A stretch of 64,000 nucleotides of DNA from Omnitrophica bacterium GWA2_41_15 (lineage in GTDB: Bacteria; Omnitrophota; Gorgyraeia; Gygaellales; Profunditerraquicolaceae). Location: positions 64,192 through 128,191 of the forward strand of contig CAKKQB010000013.1 of NCBI GenBank assembly GCA_919901915.1, given 5' to 3'. The notes beneath the pieces were generated by a model that had not been told where the DNA came from, did not search any database, and saw only the letters and a list, made by a program, of their open reading frames with translations. Shown here piece by piece: positions 1,934-56,225 of the stretch (within the stretch, counting starts at the first letter, position 1; each line of letters opens with the position of its first letter). The translations under genes were made by a program, and so were the position numbers.

Positions 1934-2070
1934 CGTACATTAGCAACTTGAACCCGGATTTTGCAATAGAAACGACATTCGCCGGCAAATCGGTTTCGGC
2001 TATAGGAAGCCGAACCATAGCCTTGTGGCTAAAAGAGCGCATCTTCATCATTTTAACAGGAACCGGAATA

Positions 2071-2106
2071 AGTGTAGAAACGAGGCACTGCCTCGTCTCT
2101 ACACTT
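2071..2106. repeat. family D hairpin (GTAGAGACGC stem, variable loop)
   Basis: agtgtagaaacgaggcactgcctcgtctctacact. Confidence 0.6.
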
Positions 2107-2145
2107 ATTTCTGGCGCACCCTTCACATTATTTACAAAAGAACCA

Positions 2146-2376
2146 TTATTTTTGGGCTTTAATTTTCTCGATATTTATATCTTTACCTCTTAAATACTCA
2201 AAGGCCTTAGCTACTTCCTCTTCATCTCCCTCTAAGCCAAGTATAGCCCAACCGGAATACATAGAGAATGACGCCTCAAATATATTCAAGTTAATATTAA
2301 AACTTTTACACAAATAACAAATTATAGACTCATCCTTTAAATTGCCGGGAAAGGTTAACCCAATCAATACTTTCAT
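2146..2376 (-). CDS. small NIL/ACT-like domain protein
   Basis: 76 aa; ILGLEGDEEEVAKAFEYLRGKDINIE segment resembles stand-alone NIL (MetN C-terminal type) domain. Confidence 0.45.
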   Translation of the reverse strand: MKVLIGLTFPGNLKDESIICYLCKSFNINLNIFEASFSMYSGWAILGLEGDEEEVAKAFEYLRGKDINIEKIKAQK

Positions 2377-2401
2377 CTAAAAATCTCCGTAATCGATTCC
2401 A

Positions 2402-4114
2402 CTAAGCCTCCTCTGTTACCCGCAATACTTCATCTGGCGTCGTAGAGCCATTCTTGATTTTCTCTATGCCATCTTCGTATATGGTACGCGAACCTAAGAT
2501 TATCGCCTTTTTCTGAATTTCACGGCCAGGCATTTTAGCAACAACCATACTCTTAAGTTCATCATTCATCACCAGAAACTCAAAAATACCGATACGGCCA
2601 AAATATCCAGTATTCTTACAATTCTGACAGCCCTTTCCGCGATAAAATTCACCCTTATAATCTAATTTTAAATCACGCAACATCTCGTCAGAAGGCATAT
2701 AGCTTTCCTTACATTTAGGACAAATTACCCGCACTAACCTCTGCGCTAATATTCCAGTAACAGAAGTGGCAATTAAAAATGGCTCAATGCCCATATCCAA
2801 GAGCCGGGTCAGAGAACTAACGGCATCATTGGTATGCAGTGTAGAAAGCACTAAGTGCCCTGTTAAAGATGCCTGGATAGCAATCTCGGCAGTCTCTTTG
2901 TCGCGAATTTCACCTACCATTATTATATCCGGGTCCTGGCGCAAAATATTACGCAACCCATTAGCAAAAGTCAGGCCCGCAAGGGGATTAACCTGCGTTT
3001 GACGAATAAGAGGAACATCATATTCTACGGGATCCTCAATGGTAATGATATTTTTTTCTATGCTATTTATTACAGATAAGGCGGCGTAGAGGGTCGTGGT
3101 CTTACCTGAGCCAGTCGGCCCGGTAACTAAAATTATTCCATTGGGCCTTGTGATTAACTTTTCAAAGCCCTTTAGGTCTTTATCGGAAAAACCCAATTGG
3201 CTTAAACCTAAAATCACGTTGGATTTATCCAAAATTCTTAAAACTATATTTTCTCCGTTAATCGTAGGAAAAGAAGAAACCCTTAAATCAAGATTCTTGT
3301 TTTCCATCTTAATCTGAATCCGGCCATCTTGGGGCCTGCGCGTCTCAGCTATATCCATTCTCGCCATCACCTTAACACGCGAAACAAAAGCGCCCTGAAG
3401 GTATTTGGGAAGCTGCTGGGCCTCATGCAAAATTCCGTCAATGCGATAACGAATAAGTATCTTGCCTTGGGCTGGTTCAATATGGATATCGCTGGCGCGG
3501 TCTTTAACTGCCTGCATAATAATTAAATTTACTAATTTTATAACCGGCGCCTCCTCGGTAATATCAACTAATCCCTCGGGAACAAGCTTCTCTGCGCCTG
3601 TTGAAAAAGGAGACAAACCTTTAGGGCCTTTCGCCTGAACAGATAATTTTTCTTCGGTTAAATCTTCTATTAATTTTTTGACATCCCCTGCTGCCCCATA
3701 ATACTGGTCAATCATTTTTTCGATTGCCCCGGGTGAAGCCAGCATCGGCTCAATTACGTCTATACCGCTACTTTTTCTTATTTCATCTAACACCATAATG
3801 TTATGAGGATCTGCCATTGCCACTGTAAGAGAATTACCGATTTTAAATAAAGGCATGGCCTTGAATCTTTTTGCCATTGCCTCCGGAATAAATTTTATTA
3901 TCGCGGAATCAATCAAATAATCCGCCAAATCTATAAATGGAACACCTATTGAACCAGCCCATGCCTTCAAAATATCCACTTCGGAAATAAATCCCAGGCG
4001 TTCCAGGGCCTTCTCTAAAAGAAGACCTGTTTTTGCCGCCTCTTCCTGACCCTGGACAAGCTGCTCTCGCGTAATTATGCCTTCCTGAATAAGAAAATCA
4101 ACGCTTGCGCTCAT
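2402..4114 (-). CDS. pilB: type IV pilus assembly ATPase PilB (GspE family)
   Basis: 570 aa; N-terminal T2SSE_N-like region, Walker A GPTGSGKTTT, Asp/His boxes, tetracysteine CPKC...CQNC zinc motif. Confidence 0.9.
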   Translation of the reverse strand: MSASVDFLIQEGIITREQLVQGQEEAAKTGLLLEKALERLGFISEVDILKAWAGSIGVPFIDLADYLIDSAIIKFIPEAMAKRFKAMPLFKIGNSLTVAMADPHNIMVLDEIRKSSGIDVIEPMLASPGAIEKMIDQYYGAAGDVKKLIEDLTEEKLSVQAKGPKGLSPFSTGAEKLVPEGLVDITEEAPVIKLVNLIIMQAVKDRASDIHIEPAQGKILIRYRIDGILHEAQQLPKYLQGAFVSRVKVMARMDIAETRRPQDGRIQIKMENKNLDLRVSSFPTINGENIVLRILDKSNVILGLSQLGFSDKDLKGFEKLITRPNGIILVTGPTGSGKTTTLYAALSVINSIEKNIITIEDPVEYDVPLIRQTQVNPLAGLTFANGLRNILRQDPDIIMVGEIRDKETAEIAIQASLTGHLVLSTLHTNDAVSSLTRLLDMGIEPFLIATSVTGILAQRLVRVICPKCKESYMPSDEMLRDLKLDYKGEFYRGKGCQNCKNTGYFGRIGIFEFLVMNDELKSMVVAKMPGREIQKKAIILGSRTIYEDGIEKIKNGSTTPDEVLRVTEEA

Positions 4115-4132
4115 AACTGATACTCCTTCATT

Positions 4133-6085
4133 TTAAAGACGCGAACGTACAAATTTTGAGATAATTTTTTTATCTTTAGTTTTTAAATTTATAAATTCAA
4201 GGCCCAGCTTATATTCTTTAACGCCAATTCCCGGTGCCTCTTCTATATATTTTATCCAGGCCACATCCGCCATAACACAAAAAGGCTTTACTTTAGGAAA
4301 TTTCAATTTAACCTGTATCCGGCTGTCTGTTTCTATCTTTCTCTTAGCTATAAAACAAATTCCGCCTTCAGAGATATCAATAGTTTGAGAAGATTCTATC
4401 TCTTCCCCGGGCAATAAAATCTCAATATCCGCTTTATAAAAAATCCTGCGAAAACGCCTCTTTTCTAAGCCAACGCGTATCTTCTTAATATTGATACTGC
4501 TTATAAGCCGCGAAGCAGGAAGAGATTGAGATTTAGAATCATACGGCAATACTCCTAAATTTATAAAAACATTCTCTAAATTCTGTGCCGCGAAATATTT
4601 TCTTATTCTATTCTTGAGTAAATCGCAAAATTTTACGGCCACCTCTTCTCCTGCCTTTAAAAGCAGGATACCAATTTCTCCTTCTTTATAATTCTCTAAG
4701 CATACCCGCGGGGAACAGGCAGATATATCCCCCGCGCCTAATTTCTCAAATGTTTCCTCAAAAAATACCTTTAAATTACCAAGTAACCCTATGGAGTCAA
4801 TATTGAATTCTTTCTGGAATTGCGCGTAATTAACAATCAGCAAATTAACCAAATAAACAGGCAGGCTTTCTTCCGCTAAATTATTAATCTTATCCCTGAT
4901 ATCCTTGCTTAATATTTTATCCGTATAAAATCTGGGCAGGGTAAAATAAAATTTACTGCCCACGCCCAATTCAGATTCAACCCAAATCTCTCCACCGTGT
5001 TTTTCTATCAATTCTTTCGTGATAAAAAGCCCCAACCCGACTCCTTTTCTCTTTACTTGAGATTCACTGGCAAGCTGAATAAACTTATTAAATATTTTAG
5101 GTAAATCTTGTTTGGCTATCCCAATACCCGTGTCCATAACAACTACTCTAACCTTATCCTCCAAAATTCTGACTTCAATCCTAATCTTTCCGTTTTGTTC
5201 GGTAAACTTTATAGCGTTATTAACTAAGTTCGCGATAACCTGATTTATTCTTCCGGCATCTATAAATATATTTATTTCTTGGCCCTGAGGCAAATCATAC
5301 TCCAAACCTACGCCCTTTTGCTCTGCCAATTTTTTAAAAAACGCGAAAGAATCCATTAGTAAATCGCTAAGATTAACTAACGAATAACGCATTTTAATCT
5401 TACCTCTTTCAAATCTAGAAATATCAAGCAGTTCTTCTATTATATCATTTAGGCGCGCTATATTATTTTTTGCCTTCGTAAGTATTTCTTTCTGCTTAGA
5501 AATTAATGGGCCCGCAACCTCATCGATAAGAAGCATTACCGCGTCTTTAATAATCGCTAGTGGTGTCCTAATCTCATGAGAAACAACAGAAACAAATTCA
5601 GACTTCATTCTATTTAATTCTTCCAATCCTTCTATTTTTTTGCAAATCAACGCCTTTTCTTCTCTCAAGCGCTCAAATTGCATGCGCTGGGTAATATCCC
5701 TGGTAATACCAATAAGGCCGACAATCTTACCTTTATTGTCGTATCTGGGTATCTTGGTTGTTGACGCGTAATTATCAACGCCGTCTACCCGTGTAGCCCT
5801 TTCAATTTTATCAATTATAGGCTTACCGGTCGTCATAACATGCAAATCATCCTTAGCCATTTCCCGCGCCCGTTCCCGGGGAAAAATATCAAAATCCGTT
5901 TTCCCAACTACCTCTTCGGGCTTAAGGCCCAAGCCCTTAGCATGGGTCTGATTAACCATAATCAGCCTCCCCCGGGTATCTTTAAAGTAAATAACATCCG
6001 GCACCATATCCATAAGATCGGAAAGAAGTTTATACTTATTCTCTAACTCTTTATATTTCTTTTGTAACTCTTTAAAATTATTCAT
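4133..6085 (-). CDS. PAS sensor histidine kinase with C-terminal PilZ (c-di-GMP binding) domain
   Basis: 650 aa; PAS (aa ~20-135), HisKA H-box SHEIRTPL, HATPase_c (N/G boxes), C-terminal RRFRRIFY...DISEGGICF PilZ signature (RxxxR + D/NxSxGG). Confidence 0.85.
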   Translation of the reverse strand: MNNFKELQKKYKELENKYKLLSDLMDMVPDVIYFKDTRGRLIMVNQTHAKGLGLKPEEVVGKTDFDIFPRERAREMAKDDLHVMTTGKPIIDKIERATRVDGVDNYASTTKIPRYDNKGKIVGLIGITRDITQRMQFERLREEKALICKKIEGLEELNRMKSEFVSVVSHEIRTPLAIIKDAVMLLIDEVAGPLISKQKEILTKAKNNIARLNDIIEELLDISRFERGKIKMRYSLVNLSDLLMDSFAFFKKLAEQKGVGLEYDLPQGQEINIFIDAGRINQVIANLVNNAIKFTEQNGKIRIEVRILEDKVRVVVMDTGIGIAKQDLPKIFNKFIQLASESQVKRKGVGLGLFITKELIEKHGGEIWVESELGVGSKFYFTLPRFYTDKILSKDIRDKINNLAEESLPVYLVNLLIVNYAQFQKEFNIDSIGLLGNLKVFFEETFEKLGAGDISACSPRVCLENYKEGEIGILLLKAGEEVAVKFCDLLKNRIRKYFAAQNLENVFINLGVLPYDSKSQSLPASRLISSINIKKIRVGLEKRRFRRIFYKADIEILLPGEEIESSQTIDISEGGICFIAKRKIETDSRIQVKLKFPKVKPFCVMADVAWIKYIEEAPGIGVKEYKLGLEFINLKTKDKKIISKFVRSRL

Positions 6086-6104
6086 AAAAAAGATTTTTCC
6101 GTAA

Positions 6105-6255
6105 ATAGGGACTGCCCGACTGGACCCCGGCTTCCGCCGGGGTGACGAGCTAACATTGTCATTCCCTCGGTCAGCCTCATTACCATCGTCGTCATTCCGG
6201 CGAAAGCCGGAATCCAGAAAGAAATCTTGTCCACCTCGTAGGCGCGCGCTTATCT
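6105..6255. repeat. composite of family A-type hairpins between REC gene and HK gene
   Basis: ctggaccccggcttccgccggggtgac and gtcattccggcgaaagccggaatccag in opposite orientation. Confidence 0.65.
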
Positions 6256-6298
6256 TTACTCGTATTCACCTACCAGGTGGACTCTGGTTCCCTAAATG

Positions 6299-6670
6299 CT
6301 AACCAAGTAACTGGCGAATCTTCTCTAATAACACGTGGGCATCAAAAGGTTTAGTAATATAAACGTCGGCGCGCACATCTTTAGCTATTTCTTTATCAGA
6401 TTCATCAGCGCGCGCGGTAAAAATAATAATTGGAATATTTTTATATTTCTCGTCAAACTTTAGCAACCGGCATACTTTATAACCGTCCATTTTAGGAAGC
6501 ATTAAATCTAATATAATAAGGTCTGGATTCTCTTTTTTCGCTTTCTCTAAACCCTCCAGGCCATCCCCCGCGGAAATAACCTCATAATCATTAGCCTCTA
6601 ACCGCAGGCTGACAGTTTCAACCAAATCACTCTCATCTTCAATAATCAATATTCTCTTTTTACTCATCAC
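6299..6670 (-). CDS. stand-alone response-regulator receiver (CheY-like)
   Basis: 123 aa; ILIIEDE...DLIILDLMLPKMDG...K conserved REC residues; no output domain. Confidence 0.85.
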   Translation of the reverse strand: MMSKKRILIIEDESDLVETVSLRLEANDYEVISAGDGLEGLEKAKKENPDLIILDLMLPKMDGYKVCRLLKFDEKYKNIPIIIFTARADESDKEIAKDVRADVYITKPFDAHVLLEKIRQLLG

Positions 6671-6691
6671 ACGATACCTCCCTTAAAAATT

Positions 6692-6768
6692 TGGTGACGG
6701 CGGGTGGATTTGGACCACCGACTTAACGGGTATGAGCCGTTTGCTCTACCAGACTGAGCTACGCCGCC
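6692..6768 (-). tRNA. tRNA with CAT anticodon (elongator Met or Ile2/lysidine type; not initiator)
   Basis: Minus-strand GGCGGCGTAGCTCAGTCTGGTAGAGCAAACGGCTCATACCCGTTAAGTCGGTGGTCCAAATCCACCCGCCGTCACCA folds as cloverleaf; anticodon loop CTCATAC; anticodon stem lacks the 3 G-C of initiators; encoded CCA; T-loop reads TCCAAAT (C at position 55 unusual). Confidence 0.75.
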
Positions 6769-6775
6769 TTAATCC

Positions 6776-7264
6776 TTACTGTTCCAAGATAAGTTCAATA
6801 TTTCTAGAGCCGTTATTCAAAATAACCCTGTCAAGCTTTATATCAACTACAGTATGGACGCCAATCTTATCTCCCACTTTTACAATATTATCATTTATTA
6901 TCGCCAAAGAAGCTTTTTTATCACAAATTATACCCATAAGTTTTAAGCCAATTATTTCTTCGTCGCAAAAATAAGTCTTACCGCTAAAAGGGCATCTTCC
7001 CTGAACATGTCCTTTGTCCGGCGGCGATTGCCTCGCGGTCCGTGGCTCCTCCGAGAAGCGGGTAAAACTAGGAACCTGCTTGTCTAACGGGTTAATTATC
7101 GCGGATACACCAGGATTTGTTCCGTTAAGAGGTTCTTTTCTCATGGAAGGAACGGCATTGGTCAAGGACCTTTTCTTAATCACCTTTAGGGTATTTCCCC
7201 AGGCAAAAATAAAAACCAGAATTAACACTCCTGTAATAATTATTTTTACGCGTTCCTTATCCAT
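6776..7264 (-). CDS. PilP-like pilus assembly lipoprotein/periplasmic protein
   Basis: 162 aa; N-terminal TM helix; C-terminal GLKLMGII...INDNIVKVGDKIGVHTVVDIKLDRVILNNG matches PilP/GspC HR-domain pattern; position after pilO. Confidence 0.55.
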   Translation of the reverse strand: MDKERVKIIITGVLILVFIFAWGNTLKVIKKRSLTNAVPSMRKEPLNGTNPGVSAIINPLDKQVPSFTRFSEEPRTARQSPPDKGHVQGRCPFSGKTYFCDEEIIGLKLMGIICDKKASLAIINDNIVKVGDKIGVHTVVDIKLDRVILNNGSRNIELILEQ

Positions 7265-7430
7265 ATTGTCACAAAAAGAGTATTATAGTTTCCACTGAAA
7301 AAGTGGAAACTATATGATTACAACGATTAAAAAATAGATTACAGTGATTAATGTCCGACGAGAAAAAATCTCCGTAATCTTTTTAAAATCTCCGTAATCA
7401 AGTTACTGCTGGGTTTTTCAGCAGTAACTA

Positions 7431-7991
7431 TTATGGAACCTTTTTAAACAAATAAACAGAAATTTGCAAAACAGCTTCTAAACAAATTTGACCTTCCCCC
7501 GCGCCCTGAATCTTAAGCTCTCTTATCCTTACAAGAAACACGGGATTATTCCTTAAAATATCTAAATATCTATTTATGGCTATAAATTCACCTGCCAAAT
7601 TAAAAGTTATAGGCAACTCTTCTATATCATAACCCGAAACAGGAGTTTCTATTGGGCGCCTGCTCGAACTGCTAAGATTTTTAATTTCGATATTTAAATT
7701 CTTTGCTGTCTCGGATAGATTATTTATTACTATTTCTTCCTTATTAAGCAGTTGGCTTTCAATTTTATTCAGTTGCGCTCCCATACCATTTAATGCTTCC
7801 CCTACATCCTTGCCCTGAAGAATACCTTTTATTTCTAAAATCTGGCTATCAGCATCCTTCAATTGATTCTTTATCAAAGCAAACCTCCGTATCTGGGGAG
7901 AATAAACAAACTGCCAGAACAAAAACAAAAACACCGCCGCGGCTACAGCAAAATAAATAATTTTCCTCTGTTCTTTGTTTAACACTATCAT
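7431..7991 (-). CDS. PilO-like inner-membrane pilus assembly protein
   Basis: 186 aa; single N-terminal TM (IIYFAVAAAVFLFLFWQFVY) then coiled coil; gene order pilMN-pilO-pilP. Confidence 0.6.
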   Translation of the reverse strand: MIVLNKEQRKIIYFAVAAAVFLFLFWQFVYSPQIRRFALIKNQLKDADSQILEIKGILQGKDVGEALNGMGAQLNKIESQLLNKEEIVINNLSETAKNLNIEIKNLSSSSRRPIETPVSGYDIEELPITFNLAGEFIAINRYLDILRNNPVFLVRIRELKIQGAGEGQICLEAVLQISVYLFKKVP

Positions 7992-8012
7992 AGCAATATT
8001 AATTTAACACGA

Positions 8013-8218
8013 ATTCTCATGGGGCTGTTGCGAAATGCCATTTTTCGTCATTCCGGCGAAAACCGGAATCCAGAACTCTTTGATTTTAATAGACTTATGG
8101 ATACCGGCGACCGAGGGCGAAATGACCGAGGAAGTGTCGGAGCCTAACTGGGCTCGACCTTTCGCCAATATGACGATTTTAATGTATTTTGCAACAGCCC
8201 CCTCATGGATTTATCCGT
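8013..8218. mobile_element. MITE family A (~200 bp) with ~20-bp TIRs CATGGGGCTGTTGCGAAAT and internal hairpin GTCATTCCGGCGAAARCCGGAATCCAG
   Basis: near-identical copy at 51988-52171; TIRs read directly; spurious ORF 8035-8259. Confidence 0.8.
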
Positions 8219-8255
8219 GTTTATCCGTGTTCTTTTATCCGTGTCAATCCGTGTT
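8207..8255 (-). promoter_or_regulatory. cluster of 4 direct TTATCCGTGT (minus: ACACGGATAA) motifs with 10-14-bp phasing, just after pilMN stop / upstream of pilO
   Basis: ttatccgtgtttatccgtgttcttttatccgtgtcaatccgtgtt. Confidence 0.6.
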
Positions 8256-16071: not shown

Positions 16072-17286
16072 CTACCCCGGCCTAAACAATTTAATCAAAT
16101 TCCACATCGGCAGGAATATAGCCAAAGCCATAATTAAAACCATAATCCCTAAAACAAAAATTAATATAGGCTCAATATAAGTAGTCAAATTCCTGATCAT
16201 ATAAGCTGTTTCCCTGTCATAATAATCCGCCACATTTATAAGCAATTCGCCCATCCTGCCTGTTTGTTCTCCGGTTGAGACCATCTGAACTACAACAATA
16301 GGAAACAAATTGCTTACCTTCATCGGTTCAGACATACCCTTGCCCTGGTTAACATTTTCCTTGATATGCCCGATTGCCCGCGCGACAATAATATTTCCGG
16401 ACGTGTTTGCCGTTAAATCCAACACCTCTAAAATAGACACGCCGCTTTCCATTAATATGGCGGTAACACGCGCGAAACGCGACATAATAAGCAAGGTTAT
16501 CAACGGCCCCAAAACCGGAATCTTTAATTTAAGATTATCAAAAATAGGCCTGCCTATTTTTGAATTAATGAAACTCCTTAAACCAAAAATACCTGCTCCT
16601 GTCAACAAAATAAATAAATACCAAAATTTCTTGATACTAATACTAAGGGCGATTAAAATCCTTGTCGGAAGAGGCAATAACGTATTAAACTGGCTGTAAA
16701 TAACCGCAAAACGCGGAATGACAAAGGTAATCACAATAAGAAAAGCTACACATAAAGCAGAAAATGCCAACATCGGATAACGCGTGGCCGCGTTTATGCG
16801 GCTGGAAGTATCAATCTCCTGCTCTAATAACCCCGAGAGCCTTTCCAAAACACCCACTATATTACCGCTGGTCTCCGCGACCTTAATCATCGCGACGTAG
16901 ATACCATTAAAAATTTGGGATTGCTCTTTTAAGCTATCAGAGAAACTTAAGCCTCCTTTAATATTGAGGGCAATTTTTTCAATAACAGATTTAAAATATC
17001 TATTTTTTGTTTGTTGTGCCAGCGTCTCTAAGTTTGATAACAAAGGAAGCCCCGCCTTTTGCATAGAATAAAGCTGGCGCGTAAAAACATCCAACTCTTG
17101 AAGCCCCACGCGCTTAAACCGCTTAAGAATCTTTCCAACGCCCAAATCACGCGCTTCAATAATGGATATGGGAATATAGCCCATATCCGCCAGTTCTTTC
17201 GCGGCAAAATCGCTGGTTTCAGCGACAATCGTGCCTATAGCAAGCTTAGAAAATTTATCACGCGCCTTATATTTAAAATTAGCCAT
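16072..17286 (-). CDS. pilC: type IV pilus platform protein PilC (GspF family)
   Basis: Start at [10 protein letters not shown]; two GspF repeats, 3 TM; start ATG (17286) overlaps carB stop (ATGGCTAA). Confidence 0.85.
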
Positions 17287-18916
17287 ACGTAGAATAATAA
17301 TAAGGTGTAGCGGCATGGAACTCCGCGGCACAGGTATCTACAAGTTTATACACGGGAAAAATATTAAATGATTCGCGTAATTTATACATGTCTTCTTCAT
17401 TTTTACCTAGTAAACGACTCAACTGCCTATCGCTAAAACCAAATTCCTTCGCTTGAGTAAGGAGCTCTTTTGTAATATTATTCTTGTTTTTTATAATCTC
17501 TTTCTCTAAATCAATTATTTCTTTTATATTTGCCAAAAACCAACGGTCAATCTTGGTTAATTCATTAATTTTTTCTATATCCACCCCTATCCTTAAGGCA
17601 TCGCCAATATAAAAGATCCTTTCAGCGTTAGGTATTCTTAACTTTTGCTCAATCTTTTCCCACGCGCCATTATCCAATTCGCCTAAACTTTCTAAACCAT
17701 ACTTTTTAATCTCCAGAGAACGCAGGCCCTTCTGCAAAGCCTCCTTAAAAGTCCTCCCTATCGCCATTACCTCACCAACGGACTTCATAGAAACTGTAAG
17801 CGTGGGATCAGCGGATGGAAATTTTTCAAAAGTAAAGCGGGGAATTTTTACCACGCAATAATCTATTGCCGGTTCAAAACAAGCGGGCGTTTCTTTGGTA
17901 ATATCATTAGGGATCTCATCTAAGGTATAACCCACGGCTAACTTCGCGGCAATTTTCGCGATGGGAAAACCAGTCGCCTTAGACGCCAGAGCAGAGCTTC
18001 TTGAAACCCTTGGATTCATCTCAATAATAACCATGCGCCCGGTTTCAGGATTAATCGCGAATTGAATATTAGAGCCTCCTGTACTAACGCCTATCTCTCT
18101 TATGCAGGCAATTGAGGCGTCGCGCATTTTTTGATATTCTTTATCAGTTAACGTTTGAATAGGCGCGACAGTAATACTATCTCCTGTATGTACGCCCATC
18201 GGATCAAAATTTTCAATGGAACAAACTATTACCACATTATCCATTGAATCCCGCATTACCTCTAATTCAAACTCCTTCCAGCCAATTACCGATTCCTCAA
18301 TAAGAATTTCGCTGTTCATGCTGGACTCAAGGCCATACTTTGCCAAATCCTTAAATTCTTCTATATTATAAGCAACACTTCCGCCTGTTCCGCCTAATGT
18401 AAAACTCGGCCGAATAATCACCGGAAAACCTATCTCTTTAACCGCCTCTATGGCCTCATTTAAATTATAGGCCTTTTTACTTTTAGGCAGGTCCAGGCCA
18501 ATTTTTTGCATCGCCTTTTTAAAAAGCTGCCTGTCTTCGCCTTTTTTGATTGCCTTTATATCTACGCCAATGGTTTCTACCTTATATTTTTTAAGGATTC
18601 CTTTTTCCGCTAAATCTATAGATATATTTAAAGCGGTCTGCCCTCCCAATGTAGGCAATAACGCGTCCGGCCTTTCTCTGGCGATAATCTTTTCTATGAC
18701 CTCTACGGTCATTGGCTCAATATATGTCGCGTCTGCCATTTGAGGGTCGGTCATAATAGTAGCAGGATTTGAATTTATTAAAACTACTTTATAACCTTCC
18801 TGCCTTAAAACCTTGCAGGCTTGAGTTCCGGAATAATCAAATTCACAACCCTGGCTGATAATAATCGGGCCTGAACCAATAATTAGAATCTTCTTTATGT
18901 CAGTACGTTTAGGCAT
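17279..18916 (-). CDS. carB: carbamoyl-phosphate synthase large subunit, N-terminal half only (split carB)
   Basis: [35 protein letters not shown]...; ends ...[14 protein letters not shown] exactly at the boundary between the two homologous halves (cf. E. coli ...YMYSTYEEE...). Confidence 0.85.
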
Positions 18917-29161: not shown

Positions 29162-29421
29162 AGTTCAGCTCTCGGAAGTACCCGTCGGTGTCATTGCGAG
29201 CCCGAAGGGCGAAGCAATCTCTTTAAAAAGATTGCTTCGTCGCTATCGCTCCTCGCAATGAGACTGCGTCATAATTCGGTTTTGGTGTCATTCCGGCGAA
29301 AGCCGGAATCCATTCTCCGGCAATAACACAACTCACTGGATTCCGGCTTTCGCCGGAATGACGAATTTTTAACGATTATGACACAGTCTGAATGACACAA
29401 GTACTTCCAAGAGCTGAACTA
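29162..29421. mobile_element. ~260-bp composite MITE bounded by 20-bp TIRs (AGTTCAGCTCTYGGAAGTAC) carrying a family C hairpin and a palindromic pair of family A hairpins
   Basis: TIRs at 29162-29181 and 29401-29421; internal gtcattgcgag...ctcgcaatgag (29188-29264) and 29286-29362. Confidence 0.7.
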
Positions 29422-51987: not shown

Positions 51988-52171
51988 GAGTCTGTTGCGA
52001 AATGCCATTTTTCGTCATTCCGGCGAAAGCCGGAATCCAGAACTCTTTGATTTCAATAGGCTTATGGATACCGGCGACCGAGGGCGAAATGCCCGAGGAA
52101 GTGTCAGAGCCCAACTGGGCTCGACCTTTCGCCGGTATGACGGTTTTAATGTATTTCGCAACAGTCCCTCG
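51988..52171. mobile_element. MITE family A, second copy
   Basis: ~95% identical to 8013-8218 including TIRs. Confidence 0.8.
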
Positions 52172-56149: not shown

Positions 56150-56225
56150 TGCTGGCTCTTGTCATTCCGGCGAAAGCCGGAATCCAGTCTTCTGGACCCC
56201 GGCTTTCGCCGGGGTGACATCTTAA
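56150..56225. repeat. pair of family A-type hairpins upstream of nrdJ
   Basis: gtcattccggcgaaagccggaatccag + ctggaccccggctttcgccggggtgac. Confidence 0.65.

Follow-up and report, generated by a model that had tools for sequence, protein, structure and literature searches.

What does a histidine kinase that carries a canonical PilZ domain do next to the gene for a pilus assembly ATPase? The question is raised by a 64,000-nucleotide stretch of DNA (hereafter, the window) from the genome of an Omnitrophica bacterium, in which such a kinase and a single-domain receiver are embedded in a cluster of probable type IV pilus genes. A sequence-only reading of this locus had suggested a c-di-GMP-gated phosphorelay that controls pilus extension. 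Our analysis favors a simpler arrangement, to which we give roughly even chances, namely, a two-component pair that would respond to c-di-GMP and a PAS signal and act on pilus assembly by PilB. Type IV pili of Omnitrophota may serve to attach the cells to surfaces or hosts, and we found no account of c-di-GMP signaling in this phylum in the openly accessible literature.

A canonical PilZ domain within a histidine kinase

The kinase and the receiver are encoded on the minus strand, exactly where the sequence-only reading had placed them (Table 1), and no start codon is present in frame 5' of position 6085 for the 650-aa kinase ORF. The PAS, HisKA, HATPase_c, and PilZ domains previously recognized in this protein all match Pfam above the respective cutoffs, and the segments RRFRRIFY and DISEGGICF, taken as the PilZ signature, are present. 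In an alignment of 32 orthologs, many columns of the PAS domain (positions 29-132) are invariant, as are the H-box residues S169-H170-E171-x-R173-T174-P175 and, in the HATPase_c domain, N286, N290, D318, G320, G322, G348, G350, and G352, such that the phospho-acceptor histidine and the N, G1, and G2 ATP-binding boxes of HisKA-type kinases are all in place. The sequence around the histidine reads H170-E171-I-R-T174, with E171 and T174 invariant, which we take to be the ExxT/N phosphatase motif of HisKA domains (H170-E171-x-x-T174), a mark of bifunctional kinases. The protein is probably a cytoplasmic enzyme of the HisKA type with both kinase and phosphatase activities. No match to Response_reg or Hpt was detected anywhere in its 650 aa, so the kinase and the receiver would form a plain His-to-Asp two-component pair, not the phosphorelay proposed earlier.

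Table 1 Features of the kinase-receiver locus and the surrounding pilus cluster
Feature	Position in the window	Strand	Evidence
PilB/GspE-family assembly ATPase, 570 aa	2402..4114	-	T2SSE 469 bits, MshEN 73.5 bits
Soluble sensor histidine kinase, PAS-HisKA-HATPase_c-degenerate GGDEF-PilZ	4133..6085	-	ORF listing, Pfam, 32-ortholog alignment
Canonical PilZ domain, residues 541-646; R543xxxR547 and D570xS572xxG575	4148..4465	-	Pfam, motif conservation, Foldseek
Cryptic degenerate GGDEF-fold domain, residues ~394-515	4541..4906	-	Predicted structure comparison
HATPase_c catalytic domain, residues 276-384; N, G1, G2 boxes intact	4934..5260	-	Pfam 107 bits, E 8e-31
HisKA dimerization and phospho-acceptor domain, residues 160-228	5402..5608	-	Pfam HisKA 56 bits, E 3.5e-15
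PAS sensor domain, residues 27-134	5684..6007	-	PAS_4 66 bits, E 4e-18; PAS_9 46 bits
Receiver-kinase intergenic spacer, 213 bp; two GC-rich hairpins of a dispersed intergenic repeat	6086..6298	.	Sequence
Single-domain response-regulator receiver, 123 aa	6299..6670	-	Response_reg 97 bits vs threshold 30.2
pilP/GspC-like gene	6776-7264	-	Weak PilN, T2SSM, and GspC matches over the pilP-pilM genes
pilO-like gene	7431-7991	-	As for the pilP/GspC-like gene
pilM-pilN fusion	8256-9980	-	PilM_2 77 bits; otherwise as for the pilP/GspC-like gene
Three minor pilins	10130-12367	-	N_methyl matches
TPR membrane protein	12476-13969	-	ORF
Inserted PemK/MazF-like toxin-antitoxin pair	14123-14634	-	PemK_toxin 47 bits
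Two identical major-pilin genes	14737-15617	-	N_methyl matches
Small pilin-like ORF	15812-16057	-	ORF
pilC	16072-17331	-	T2SSF 173 bits

The PilZ domain scores 51.0 bits against a Pfam gathering cutoff of 22.5 (E 2e-13) and covers profile positions 1-100 of 102. In the 32 orthologs, R543 and R547 of the N-terminal-loop RxxxR motif and S572 and G575 of the (D/N)xSxxG motif never vary, and conservation is at least 90% for D570 and G574; thus, both points on which the claim of a bona fide PilZ domain hinged, the profile score and the glycines of the second motif, hold up. In Foldseek searches, the predicted C-terminal half of the kinase resembles c-di-GMP-bound PilZ domains in the PDB, namely, 4xrn, Alg44 (4rt0), YcgR (5y6g), and MapZ (5xly), with E-values of 3e-7 to 4e-6 and target TM-scores of 0.66-0.79; over the ligand-bound PilZ structures matched, the target TM-score ranges from 0.66 to 0.81. 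The modeled strands are followed by a helix (fragment residues 251-264), as in the PilZ fold, a beta-barrel with six strands plus a helix at the C-terminus. The linker bearing RxxxR is the sole long segment of low confidence in this model (fragment residues 133-158), compatible with a loop that would become ordered by the ligand. On these grounds, the domain is predicted to bind c-di-GMP.

Loss of binding is common in the PilZ superfamily (10.1101/2020.02.11.943704), and the domain could have lost its affinity for c-di-GMP and persist as a structural relic. A regular-expression search for GG[DE]EF, HD..GYP, and EALxR over all ORFs of the window yielded no credible diguanylate cyclase or phosphodiesterase, as might be expected under this scenario, and as a consequence, c-di-GMP metabolism in this organism is an assumption of the reading that we favor. 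We nevertheless consider a relic highly improbable, given that both motifs are invariant or nearly so in orthologs with an overall identity of just 52-70% and that distant members of the family retain a Pfam-significant PilZ domain. The single EALxR match in the window falls inside a 1580-aa ORF. An ORF of 646 or more codons downstream of pilB, which extends beyond the window edge, was considered as a possible HD-GYP protein and rejected for lack of Pfam support.

A degenerate GGDEF domain detected by structure comparison

The segment between HATPase_c and PilZ, which was missing from the earlier domain list, has no Pfam match even at E <=10, and a profile search of PDB sequences produced nothing significant, the best relevant hit being a diguanylate cyclase at E 0.96. 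Its identity was resolved by structure comparison only, which revealed the alpha/beta fold of the GGDEF type; distant members of the family and paralogs do match Pfam GGDEF (PF00990), with 26-54 bits. With this domain assigned, the C-terminal half of the kinase consists of degenerate GGDEF and PilZ, with nothing left over. A GGDEF-fold domain can thus escape Pfam, which is relevant to censuses of c-di-GMP signaling proteins.

The GG(D/E)EF motif is absent: the beta2-beta3 hairpin reads KEGEI in the window kinase, and the family consensus is xxGE[C/F/W]. KEGEI was assigned to the GGDEF-motif position by eye, against the PleD sequence. SgmT, PopA, and other receptors built on a degenerate GGDEF domain need an RxxD I-site upstream of the active-site position. 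This site is absent as well, the equivalent residues being SPRV in the window kinase and xPQI in the consensus; the degenerate GGDEF domain of SgmT has the I-site RHPD (PMC3509222). The explanation that we consider best is that the degenerate GGDEF domain is a catalytically dead spacer joining PilZ to the catalytic core. The Omnitrophota paralogs of the kinase are HK-GGDEF-REC hybrids, so that PilZ in the kinase fills the slot of their receiver. In a library of 1.84 billion proteins, all 13 of the longer proteins that match the degenerate GGDEF-PilZ module are histidine kinases.

The receiver is the likely cognate partner of the kinase

The receiver had been described as an orphan, which it is not. 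In 22 of 42 related loci, the kinase gene is directly followed, within 600 bp on its 3' side, by a receiver ortholog (59-73% identity), which usually adjoins pilB. Overall, the receiver is the top neighbor cluster of the kinase (27 loci). Being the most conserved neighbor, it is the likely cognate partner. The acidic pocket (E11-D12), the phospho-acceptor aspartate (D55), and the conserved threonine and lysine (T85 and K107) of receiver domains are legible in the translation, and the nearest solved structures are those of PhoP, RpaA, CheY, and RR468.

Gene packing is tight in several loci. The kinase and receiver genes overlap by 8 bp in two (L002 and L144), and the gap between receiver and pilB ranges from -17 to +26 bp in six. 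In two loci (L122 and L138), the kinase is 3-6 kb away and the receiver is still with pilB. The common order elsewhere is HK-REC-pilB, from which the window differs in that the receiver lies upstream of the kinase, behind the repeat-bearing spacer.

PilB lacks the MshEN c-di-GMP motif

As previously reported for this locus, the kinase lies between pilB and the pilM/N/O/P genes: pilB starts 18 bp past the kinase stop, downstream, and the pilP-like, pilO, and pilM-pilN genes (6776..9980) are upstream. The same alignment-complex set recurs 3' of kinase-receiver-pilB in four other loci (L002, L115, L119, and L144). The rest of the pilus operon spans 10130..17331 on the minus strand. Type IV pilus machinery, as distinct from type II secretion, would comprise PilB, PilC, PilM/N/O/P, and pilins bearing a class III signal sequence. 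A PilB/GspE ATPase, T2SSF, PilM_2, and N_methyl pilins are present, but the ATPase scores 605 bits with TIGR02538 (PilB) and 623 bits with TIGR02533 (GspE), both just under the cutoff. Secretin and PilT were not found among the annotated ORFs in 1-33 kb.

The window PilB was examined for the MshEN c-di-GMP motif, two tandem 24-residue repeats of the form RLGxx(L/V/I)(L/V/I)xxG(L/V/I)(L/V/I)xxxxLxxxLxxQ (PMC5013675). Both the strict and the relaxed forms are absent in this protein and in 17 related PilBs (a synthetic positive control matched both), and the NCBIfam c-di-GMP_motif profile gives 33.7 against a cutoff of 38. Direct c-di-GMP reception by PilB through MshEN was therefore rejected. 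Any c-di-GMP input would then require an accessory receptor, the situation also of X. citri PilB, which likewise lacks the MshEN motif (PMC8389850), and the kinase is the sole predicted entry point for c-di-GMP found in the 17-kb cluster.

The sequence-only reading had invoked PilZ proteins as c-di-GMP effectors that act on PilB, which is accurate only in part: the PilB-binding PilZ proteins of P. aeruginosa and X. citri bind no c-di-GMP, and FimX is the component that does (PMC8389850). Binding of the X. citri PilZ to PilB's N-terminal domain, also without the MshEN motif (PMC8389850), suggests an alternative in which catalysis is unchanged and c-di-GMP on PilZ, perhaps together with the degenerate GGDEF domain, brings the kinase to PilB or to the base of the pilus, or else sequesters it. 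A precedent is SgmT, a histidine kinase whose C-terminal GGDEF domain is degenerate and mediates its clustering, and for which c-di-GMP alters localization but not in vitro phosphorylation (PMC3509222); furthermore, the kinase gene itself adjoins pilB in the window and in one other locus (L084). However, the PilB-binding proteins of the non-canonical class (PA2960/XAC1133 type) lack the c-di-GMP motifs that the kinase PilZ keeps, the degenerate GGDEF domain here lacks the I-site that SgmT has, and about 60% of the family loci are not beside pilB. Tethering in this form appears quite improbable.

Family distribution and genomic context

The earlier impression that the domain architecture is unusual applies to the literature but not to the phylum: it defines a conserved Omnitrophota family of about 48 clusters at 50% identity, with more than 120 full-length homologs of the kinase at 52-69% identity. 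Distant members have other sensor modules, and one was found in a Spirochaetales MAG. We found no description of a histidine kinase-PilZ fusion in the openly accessible literature, and two PilZ surveys neither list nor analyze kinase fusions (10.1101/814665; 10.1101/2020.02.11.943704). A separate scan of a genome collection with full-length alignment picked generic kinase peptide patterns and mostly returned unrelated kinases; the only true orthologs were L004 and L005, both on short contigs, along with HK-GGDEF(-REC) paralogs.

The loci surveyed for gene neighborhoods were found by one PilZ peptide pattern, and many of the contigs are short, so the sample is biased. Within it, pilus genes are located at most 10 kb from the kinase in about 10 of the 26 loci with sufficient flanking DNA (~40%); in the remaining ~60% of informative loci, the kinase, with or without the receiver, is remote from pilus genes. 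The proposed tie between a c-di-GMP-gated kinase and the pilus is strengthened by conserved synteny with pilB and pilus genes, but the linkage is not universal.

Because the kinase and the receiver occur elsewhere in unrelated contexts, the pair may be a general regulator, that is, a general-purpose c-di-GMP-responsive system with its true output elsewhere, brought into this operon incidentally by local rearrangement. Six loci contain the kinase and the receiver without pilus genes (L001, L089, L092, L093, L099, and L111) and one contains the kinase alone (L003), and the atypical gene order in the window and the dispersed repeat within the receiver-kinase spacer also fit this view. Against it, the pilus cluster (PilB, major pilin, PilC, minor pilins, PilMN, and PilP-like) is the sole multi-gene system that recurs near the pair, the other recurrent neighbors being single genes (amidase, polysaccharide deacetylase, and an AMIN+PilZ protein), and the receiver is packed very tightly against pilB, which it follows when apart from the kinase. 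We regard an incidental association as unlikely.

A predicted route from c-di-GMP to the pilus motor

Under the reading that we favor, the kinase would receive two inputs, one through the N-terminal PAS domain and the other, c-di-GMP, through the C-terminal PilZ domain. The RxxxR linker and the PilZ barrel would bind c-di-GMP, and by analogy, this could turn the degenerate GGDEF-PilZ module relative to the DHp/CA core. How autokinase and phosphatase activities are balanced, or else receiver access, would shift, and the phosphorylation state of the receiver would be altered. The receiver has no output domain and accordingly may act by protein-protein contact, tuning pilus assembly through PilB or the PilM/N/O platform. 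The domain make-up, the conserved residues, the folds, and the synteny of kinase with receiver and of receiver with pilB are observed; c-di-GMP binding, the switch between kinase and phosphatase, the way in which regulation runs, and the target of the receiver are inferred.

A variant of this scheme leaves the autokinase unchanged: at high c-di-GMP, the fused PilZ domain would bind the receiver or block its docking site and so control phosphotransfer only. This would resemble, in cis, the action of HapZ, a stand-alone PilZ protein that, when c-di-GMP is high, binds the SagS REC domain and governs phosphotransfer (10.1101/2020.02.11.943704; PMC12564702). The presence of REC after the degenerate GGDEF domain in the paralogs implies that the C-terminal module occupies the place at which DHp would usually contact a receiver, and the status of the receiver gene as the most conserved neighbor points the same way. 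We consider such gating unlikely, although sequence alone cannot tell it apart from the favored scheme.

A more specific version of the two-component reading, which we put forward tentatively and with chances well short of even, is that the degenerate GGDEF-PilZ module replaced the REC domain of an ancestral HK-GGDEF-REC hybrid. The kinase would then be a coincidence detector that phosphorylates the free receiver only when the PAS signal and c-di-GMP are both present, and the phospho-receiver would dock on the motif-less N-domain of PilB, switching extension on or off. If so, a two-component system and a second messenger would reach the pilus motor by post-translational means alone, and this route would be conserved throughout a phylum whose members are nanobacteria, largely uncultivated and possibly dependent on hosts. 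Given that the family is widespread in Omnitrophota and recurrently linked to pilus genes, it offers a testable handle on behavioral regulation in a phylum almost without genetics. A kinase with a canonical PilZ domain in cis would, in addition, be a compact, readily purified model for the transmission of PilZ ligand binding to a catalytic partner.

Comparison with known c-di-GMP-responsive kinases

Control of histidine kinases by c-di-GMP is known in a few unrelated solutions, including the catalytic domain of CckA, the pseudo-receiver of ShkA, the I-site of SgmT, and HapZ acting in trans. In the HapZ-SagS system of Pseudomonas aeruginosa, HapZ is a separate, single-domain PilZ protein, and its target is the REC domain in a hybrid kinase that feeds an HPt relay. 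In the window, PilZ is part of the kinase itself and follows a degenerate GGDEF domain, neither REC nor HPt is fused to the kinase, and a single-domain receiver encoded separately is the probable partner. In Caulobacter crescentus, ShkA is activated by c-di-GMP via an internal pseudo-receiver (PMC6969517). The likeness is that output is governed by c-di-GMP bound to an internal domain that is non-catalytic and lies C-terminal to the kinase core (PMC6969517, PMC7010744), as is predicted for the window kinase; however, the ShkA receptor is not a PilZ domain, and ShkA, a hybrid kinase, belongs to a multistep relay with transcription as its output and has no link to the pilus.

SgmT of Myxococcus xanthus is similarly a soluble histidine kinase, in which the sensor, a GAF domain, is N-terminal and a catalytically dead GGDEF domain is C-terminal, and it is a c-di-GMP receptor with an indirect effect on pilus-dependent motility (PMC3509222). 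It differs in binding c-di-GMP via its intact I-site and in having REC and no PilZ, and its partner DigR is a DNA-binding regulator; in the window kinase, predicted binding is assigned to PilZ. The PilB-PilZ-FimX complex of Xanthomonas and Pseudomonas involves no phosphotransfer, in contrast to the canonical PilZ domain fused here to a kinase that looks active. The M. xanthus protein Pkn1 is also a protein kinase-PilZ fusion (PMC8316039), but the kinase is of the Hanks Ser/Thr type, and its PilZ domain is predicted not to bind c-di-GMP.

Repeats in the receiver-kinase spacer

A promoter and terminator scan of positions 2000-8400 gave counts that do not exceed the shuffled expectation, with nothing firm on operon structure, and detected no terminator from the receiver through the kinase to pilB. 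The two hairpins of the spacer belong to a dispersed intergenic repeat. About 30 bp of the spacer repeat are common to copies at 8045, 29287, 29336, 52012, and 56161, and the second hairpin is present in 2 copies. The element of the TTCCGGCGAAAGCCGGAA type has 7 matches at <=2 mismatches, against 0.15 expected; 6 are intergenic, and the seventh is probably due to chance.

A degenerate GGDEF domain in a phylum-wide family of PilZ-containing histidine kinases

The kinase and the receiver are minus-strand open reading frames with exactly the coordinates assigned in the sequence-only reading. The PilZ segment of the kinase exceeds the threshold of the PilZ HMM and retains the second-motif glycines on alignment; that observation was correct, well above chance. 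The approximately 150 residues that separate HATPase_c from PilZ yield no Pfam match, even at E up to 10, and no significant sequence match in the PDB. In the AlphaFold model of the C-terminal half of the kinase (pLDDT 75), the PilZ part matches ligand-bound 4xrn, Alg44, YcgR and MapZ (Foldseek, E about 1e-6 to 1e-7, target TM-score 0.66–0.79), and the middle domain gives only weak cyclase and Cas10-palm matches. Omnitrophota paralogs (loci L007, L020, L013 and L043), whose similarity to the kinase extends through the middle segment, contain a Pfam-detectable GGDEF domain at the equivalent position, followed in some of them by a receiver, and distant proteins with a segment between the histidine kinase and PilZ score 26.5–53.6 bits for GGDEF. 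The complete architecture of the kinase is PAS-HisKA-HATPase_c-degenerate GGDEF-PilZ, and the cryptic GGDEF domain is one of three improvements on the sequence-only reading. This domain is predicted to be catalytically dead: the GG(D/E)EF hairpin has the sequence KEGEI (xxGE[C/F/W] in the family consensus). SPRV (consensus xPQI) occupies the position of the RxxD I-site, which also rules out a role as an I-site receptor of the SgmT or PopA type. A further Omnitrophota paralog (L006:1438-5946, 1502 aa), judged by eye, has a CheB/CheR-like N-terminus; PAS, a histidine kinase and a segment resembling GGDEF follow, and a receiver forms the C-terminus.

Features of the window and domains of the kinase
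Feature	Position	Strand	Remarks
Kinase, 650 aa	4133-6085	(-)	ORF
Receiver, 123 aa	6299-6670	(-)	ORF; Pfam receiver domain, 97 bits
PAS_4	kinase residues 27-134		Pfam, 66 bits
HisKA	kinase residues 160-228		Pfam, 56 bits
HATPase_c	kinase residues 276-384		Pfam, 107 bits
PilZ	kinase residues 541-646		Pfam, 51.0 bits vs gathering cutoff 22.5, E 2e-13
ORF, >646 aa	2-1939	(-)	runs off window start; no Pfam match
NIL-domain ORF, 76 aa	~2130-2360	(-)	48.5 bits
Hairpin	7284-7314	(-)	13-bp perfect stem, T-rich tail
PilM-PilN fusion, 574 aa	8256-9980	(-)	extra N-terminal segment, ~85 aa
PemK/MazF-like toxin with putative antitoxin	14123-14634	(-)	toxin, 47 bits
Major-pilin genes, two identical	14737-15240 and 15201-15617	(-)	
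Exact tandem duplication, 421 bp	14714-15134 and 15178-15598		100% identity, 464-bp spacing
pilC	16072-17331	(-)	
Palindrome TTCCGGC-GAAA-GCCGGAA	6195-6212, 8051-8068, 29291-29308, 29341-29358, 52018-52035, 56165-56182		
Second hairpin CCCCGGC-nnnn-GCCGGGG	6125-6142, 56197-56214		two gaps; accompanies palindrome

A search of 5.8 billion proteins identified more than 120 full-length homologs of the kinase (52–69% identity), every one with the PAS, HisKA, HATPase_c and PilZ Pfam set, and all named ones from Candidatus Omnitrophota MAGs. Among the 32 homologs aligned for conservation scoring, the phospho-acceptor H170 with its flanking S-H-E-x-R-T-P, the N box (N286, N290), the G1 box (D318, G320, G322) and the G2 box (G348, G350, G352) are invariant, as are R543 and R547 of the PilZ RxxxR motif, S572 and G575; the conservation of D570 and G574 is 90% or higher. 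By its residues, the kinase looks catalytically competent, and its conserved H-E-x-x-T signature is one that we take to be the mark of a bifunctional kinase/phosphatase. Judged from its translated sequence, the kinase is a soluble protein, with no predicted membrane segment and, at the N-terminus, a short stretch that resembles a coiled coil. The receiver has the full set of phosphorylation residues and no output domain, and hence must work via protein contacts. NCBIfam similarity of both proteins is generic, far under every equivalog cutoff, which places the pair outside every named two-component system.

Using a profile of the degenerate GGDEF+PilZ module, we exhaustively searched 1.84 billion cluster representatives and delineated a core family of 48 clusters at E <= 1e-30. 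Under the core score, all 13 longer proteins that match both parts of the module are histidine kinases, with variable N-terminal modules (none, PAS, PAS-PAS, REC or REC-PAS-PAS); the named distant examples come from Omnitrophota MAGs and one Spirochaetales MAG (MBN1410896.1). The architecture, called unusual in the sequence-only reading, defines a phylum-wide family, best classed as predicted c-di-GMP-responsive histidine kinases. We found no paper on such a family in the searchable literature; a census of M. xanthus includes the Ser/Thr kinase-PilZ protein Pkn1 and no histidine kinase-PilZ protein (PMC8316039).

The receiver is the probable cognate partner of the kinase and packs closely with pilB in several loci

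As the sequence-only reading had it, the kinase and receiver genes lie between pilB and the pilM/N/O/P genes, within one long minus-strand pilus cluster. In the order of transcription, this cluster consists of pilC, a small pilin-like ORF, two identical major-pilin genes, an inserted PemK/MazF-type toxin-antitoxin pair, a TPR membrane protein, three minor pilins, a pilM-pilN fusion, pilO, a pilP/GspC-like gene, the receiver, a 213-bp spacer, the kinase, an 18-bp gap and pilB; no terminator was detected by a consensus scan in the gaps that separate receiver, kinase and pilB. Against the equivalog cutoffs for PilB and for GspE, the score of the ATPase falls slightly short in both cases, and neither a secretin nor PilT was seen near the cluster, the predicted identity of which as a pilus rather than type II secretion is not airtight.

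We collected 56 related loci (49 non-redundant), most of them via a metagenome scan with a family-specific C-terminal profile, in a survey that was seeded by one PilZ peptide pattern and includes many short contigs. A receiver ortholog (59–73% identity) is encoded on the same strand within 600 bp downstream of the kinase in 22 of the 42 loci with enough sequence, overlapping the kinase gene by 8 bp in L002 and L144. In an unbiased ranking, for which all ORFs near the kinase were clustered across 48 non-redundant loci including the window, the receiver is the top neighbor (27 loci, median +19 bp), followed by PilB-family ATPases (14 loci; full-length PilB downstream in 12 of these, the window counted), the major pilin (10), PilC (9), minor pilins (5–7), PilMN (6) and the PilP-like protein (5); no other recurrent multi-gene system was found. 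The receiver, which had been taken for an orphan, is probably cognate to the kinase.

The linkage of the kinase to the pilus is confined to about 40% of the informative loci: the start of pilB lies no more than 1 kb downstream in 7 of the 26 loci whose flank is 2.7 kb or longer, pilus genes lie 3–6 kb away in three more (L122, L138 and L113), and L001, L003 and others present the kinase, with or without the receiver, in unrelated contexts. The common order is HK, REC, pilB, pilC, pilins, pilMN, pilO, pilP (L002, L115, L119 and L144), of which the window has a rearranged version. In six loci, receiver and pilB are spaced by -17, 1, 4, 11, 13 and 26 bp, and in L122 and L138 the receiver remains directly upstream of pilB although the kinase is 3–6 kb off; this packing suggests that the functional tie of the receiver is to PilB.

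L122 also encodes a second, very large kinase (7269-11798; CHASE, multiple PAS, HisKA-HATPase_c and degenerate GGDEF, without PilZ), flanked by the kinase-PilZ gene on one side and a REC-REC-pilB block on the other; such a kinase is likewise clustered in three other loci, and several HK-degenerate GGDEF kinases may converge on pilB-linked receivers. Where the kinase and receiver do not adjoin pilB, a protein with AMIN and weak PilZ domains (23 bits; L099:11865-12983, 372 aa; same cluster in six loci) is encoded about 1 kb downstream, with a 190-aa uncharacterized protein in between.

A possible route of c-di-GMP input to the pilus ATPase

The N-terminus of PilB is an MshEN-type domain (73.5 bits). 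The c-di-GMP motif known from MshE consists of 24 residues in tandem (PMC5013675); in strict or relaxed form, both copies are missing from the N-terminal 60 residues of PilB in the window and from those of 17 related PilBs in the collected loci (Omnitrophota and others), in a test that matches a synthetic positive control; the NCBIfam c-di-GMP motif model is under its cutoff for the window PilB. Given the lack of this motif, c-di-GMP input to the ATPase would need an accessory receptor, as in the case of X. citri PilB (PMC8389850). The kinase PilZ is the sole predicted c-di-GMP-binding site found in the annotated 17-kb cluster, and a motif scan of the window turned up no c-di-GMP-metabolizing enzyme.

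Canonical PilZ proteins have an RxxxR loop that becomes ordered around the ligand. The kinase uses this loop to connect its degenerate GGDEF to the PilZ barrel, and the model contains no other long stretch of low confidence, so that ligand binding would change the mutual packing of the two domains. We infer a mechanism in which two inputs, c-di-GMP and a cue sensed by PAS, probably converge on the kinase, the altered packing being passed via GGDEF to the catalytic core, where it could shift the kinase/phosphatase balance; ShkA would be an analog, its output being shifted by c-di-GMP by other means (PMC6969517). Alternatively, the packing change might gate access of the receiver, by analogy with HapZ acting on SagS (10.1101/2020.02.11.943704). 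The paralogs carry a receiver exactly at the position of PilZ, which fits both versions. By synteny, PilB is the leading candidate target of the receiver. The earlier notion of a c-di-GMP-gated kinase tied to the pilus is partly supported, in its domain call and pilus synteny; the receiver is probably cognate rather than orphan, the architecture extends to a phylum-wide family, and the degenerate GGDEF had been missed.

Additional features of the pilus cluster

The identical major-pilin genes result from a 421-bp exact tandem duplication that is either very recent or an assembly artefact. The toxin gene, overlapped by a small gene for a DUF2281-like putative antitoxin, has the major-pilin genes on one side and the gene of the TPR membrane protein on the other. 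The PilM-PilN fusion, also present in L002, L115, L119 and L144, is weakly similar, by NCBIfam, to the Amuc_1101 PilM-like family. A hairpin between pilO and the pilP-like gene, overlapped by a promoter-like site (10/12 matches), may serve as an attenuator or terminator within the cluster. Directly downstream of pilB is a NIL-domain ORF, followed by a long ORF; neither is a conserved neighbor in the related loci.

The receiver-kinase spacer contains two GC-rich hairpins of a repeat element of about 30 bp. Its palindrome is present in six intergenic gaps of the window vs 0.15 expected by chance, including, within the pilus cluster, this spacer and the gap between pilMN and pilO; the related loci collected gave no match to it. 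The element resembles dispersed repeats of the REP or MITE type.
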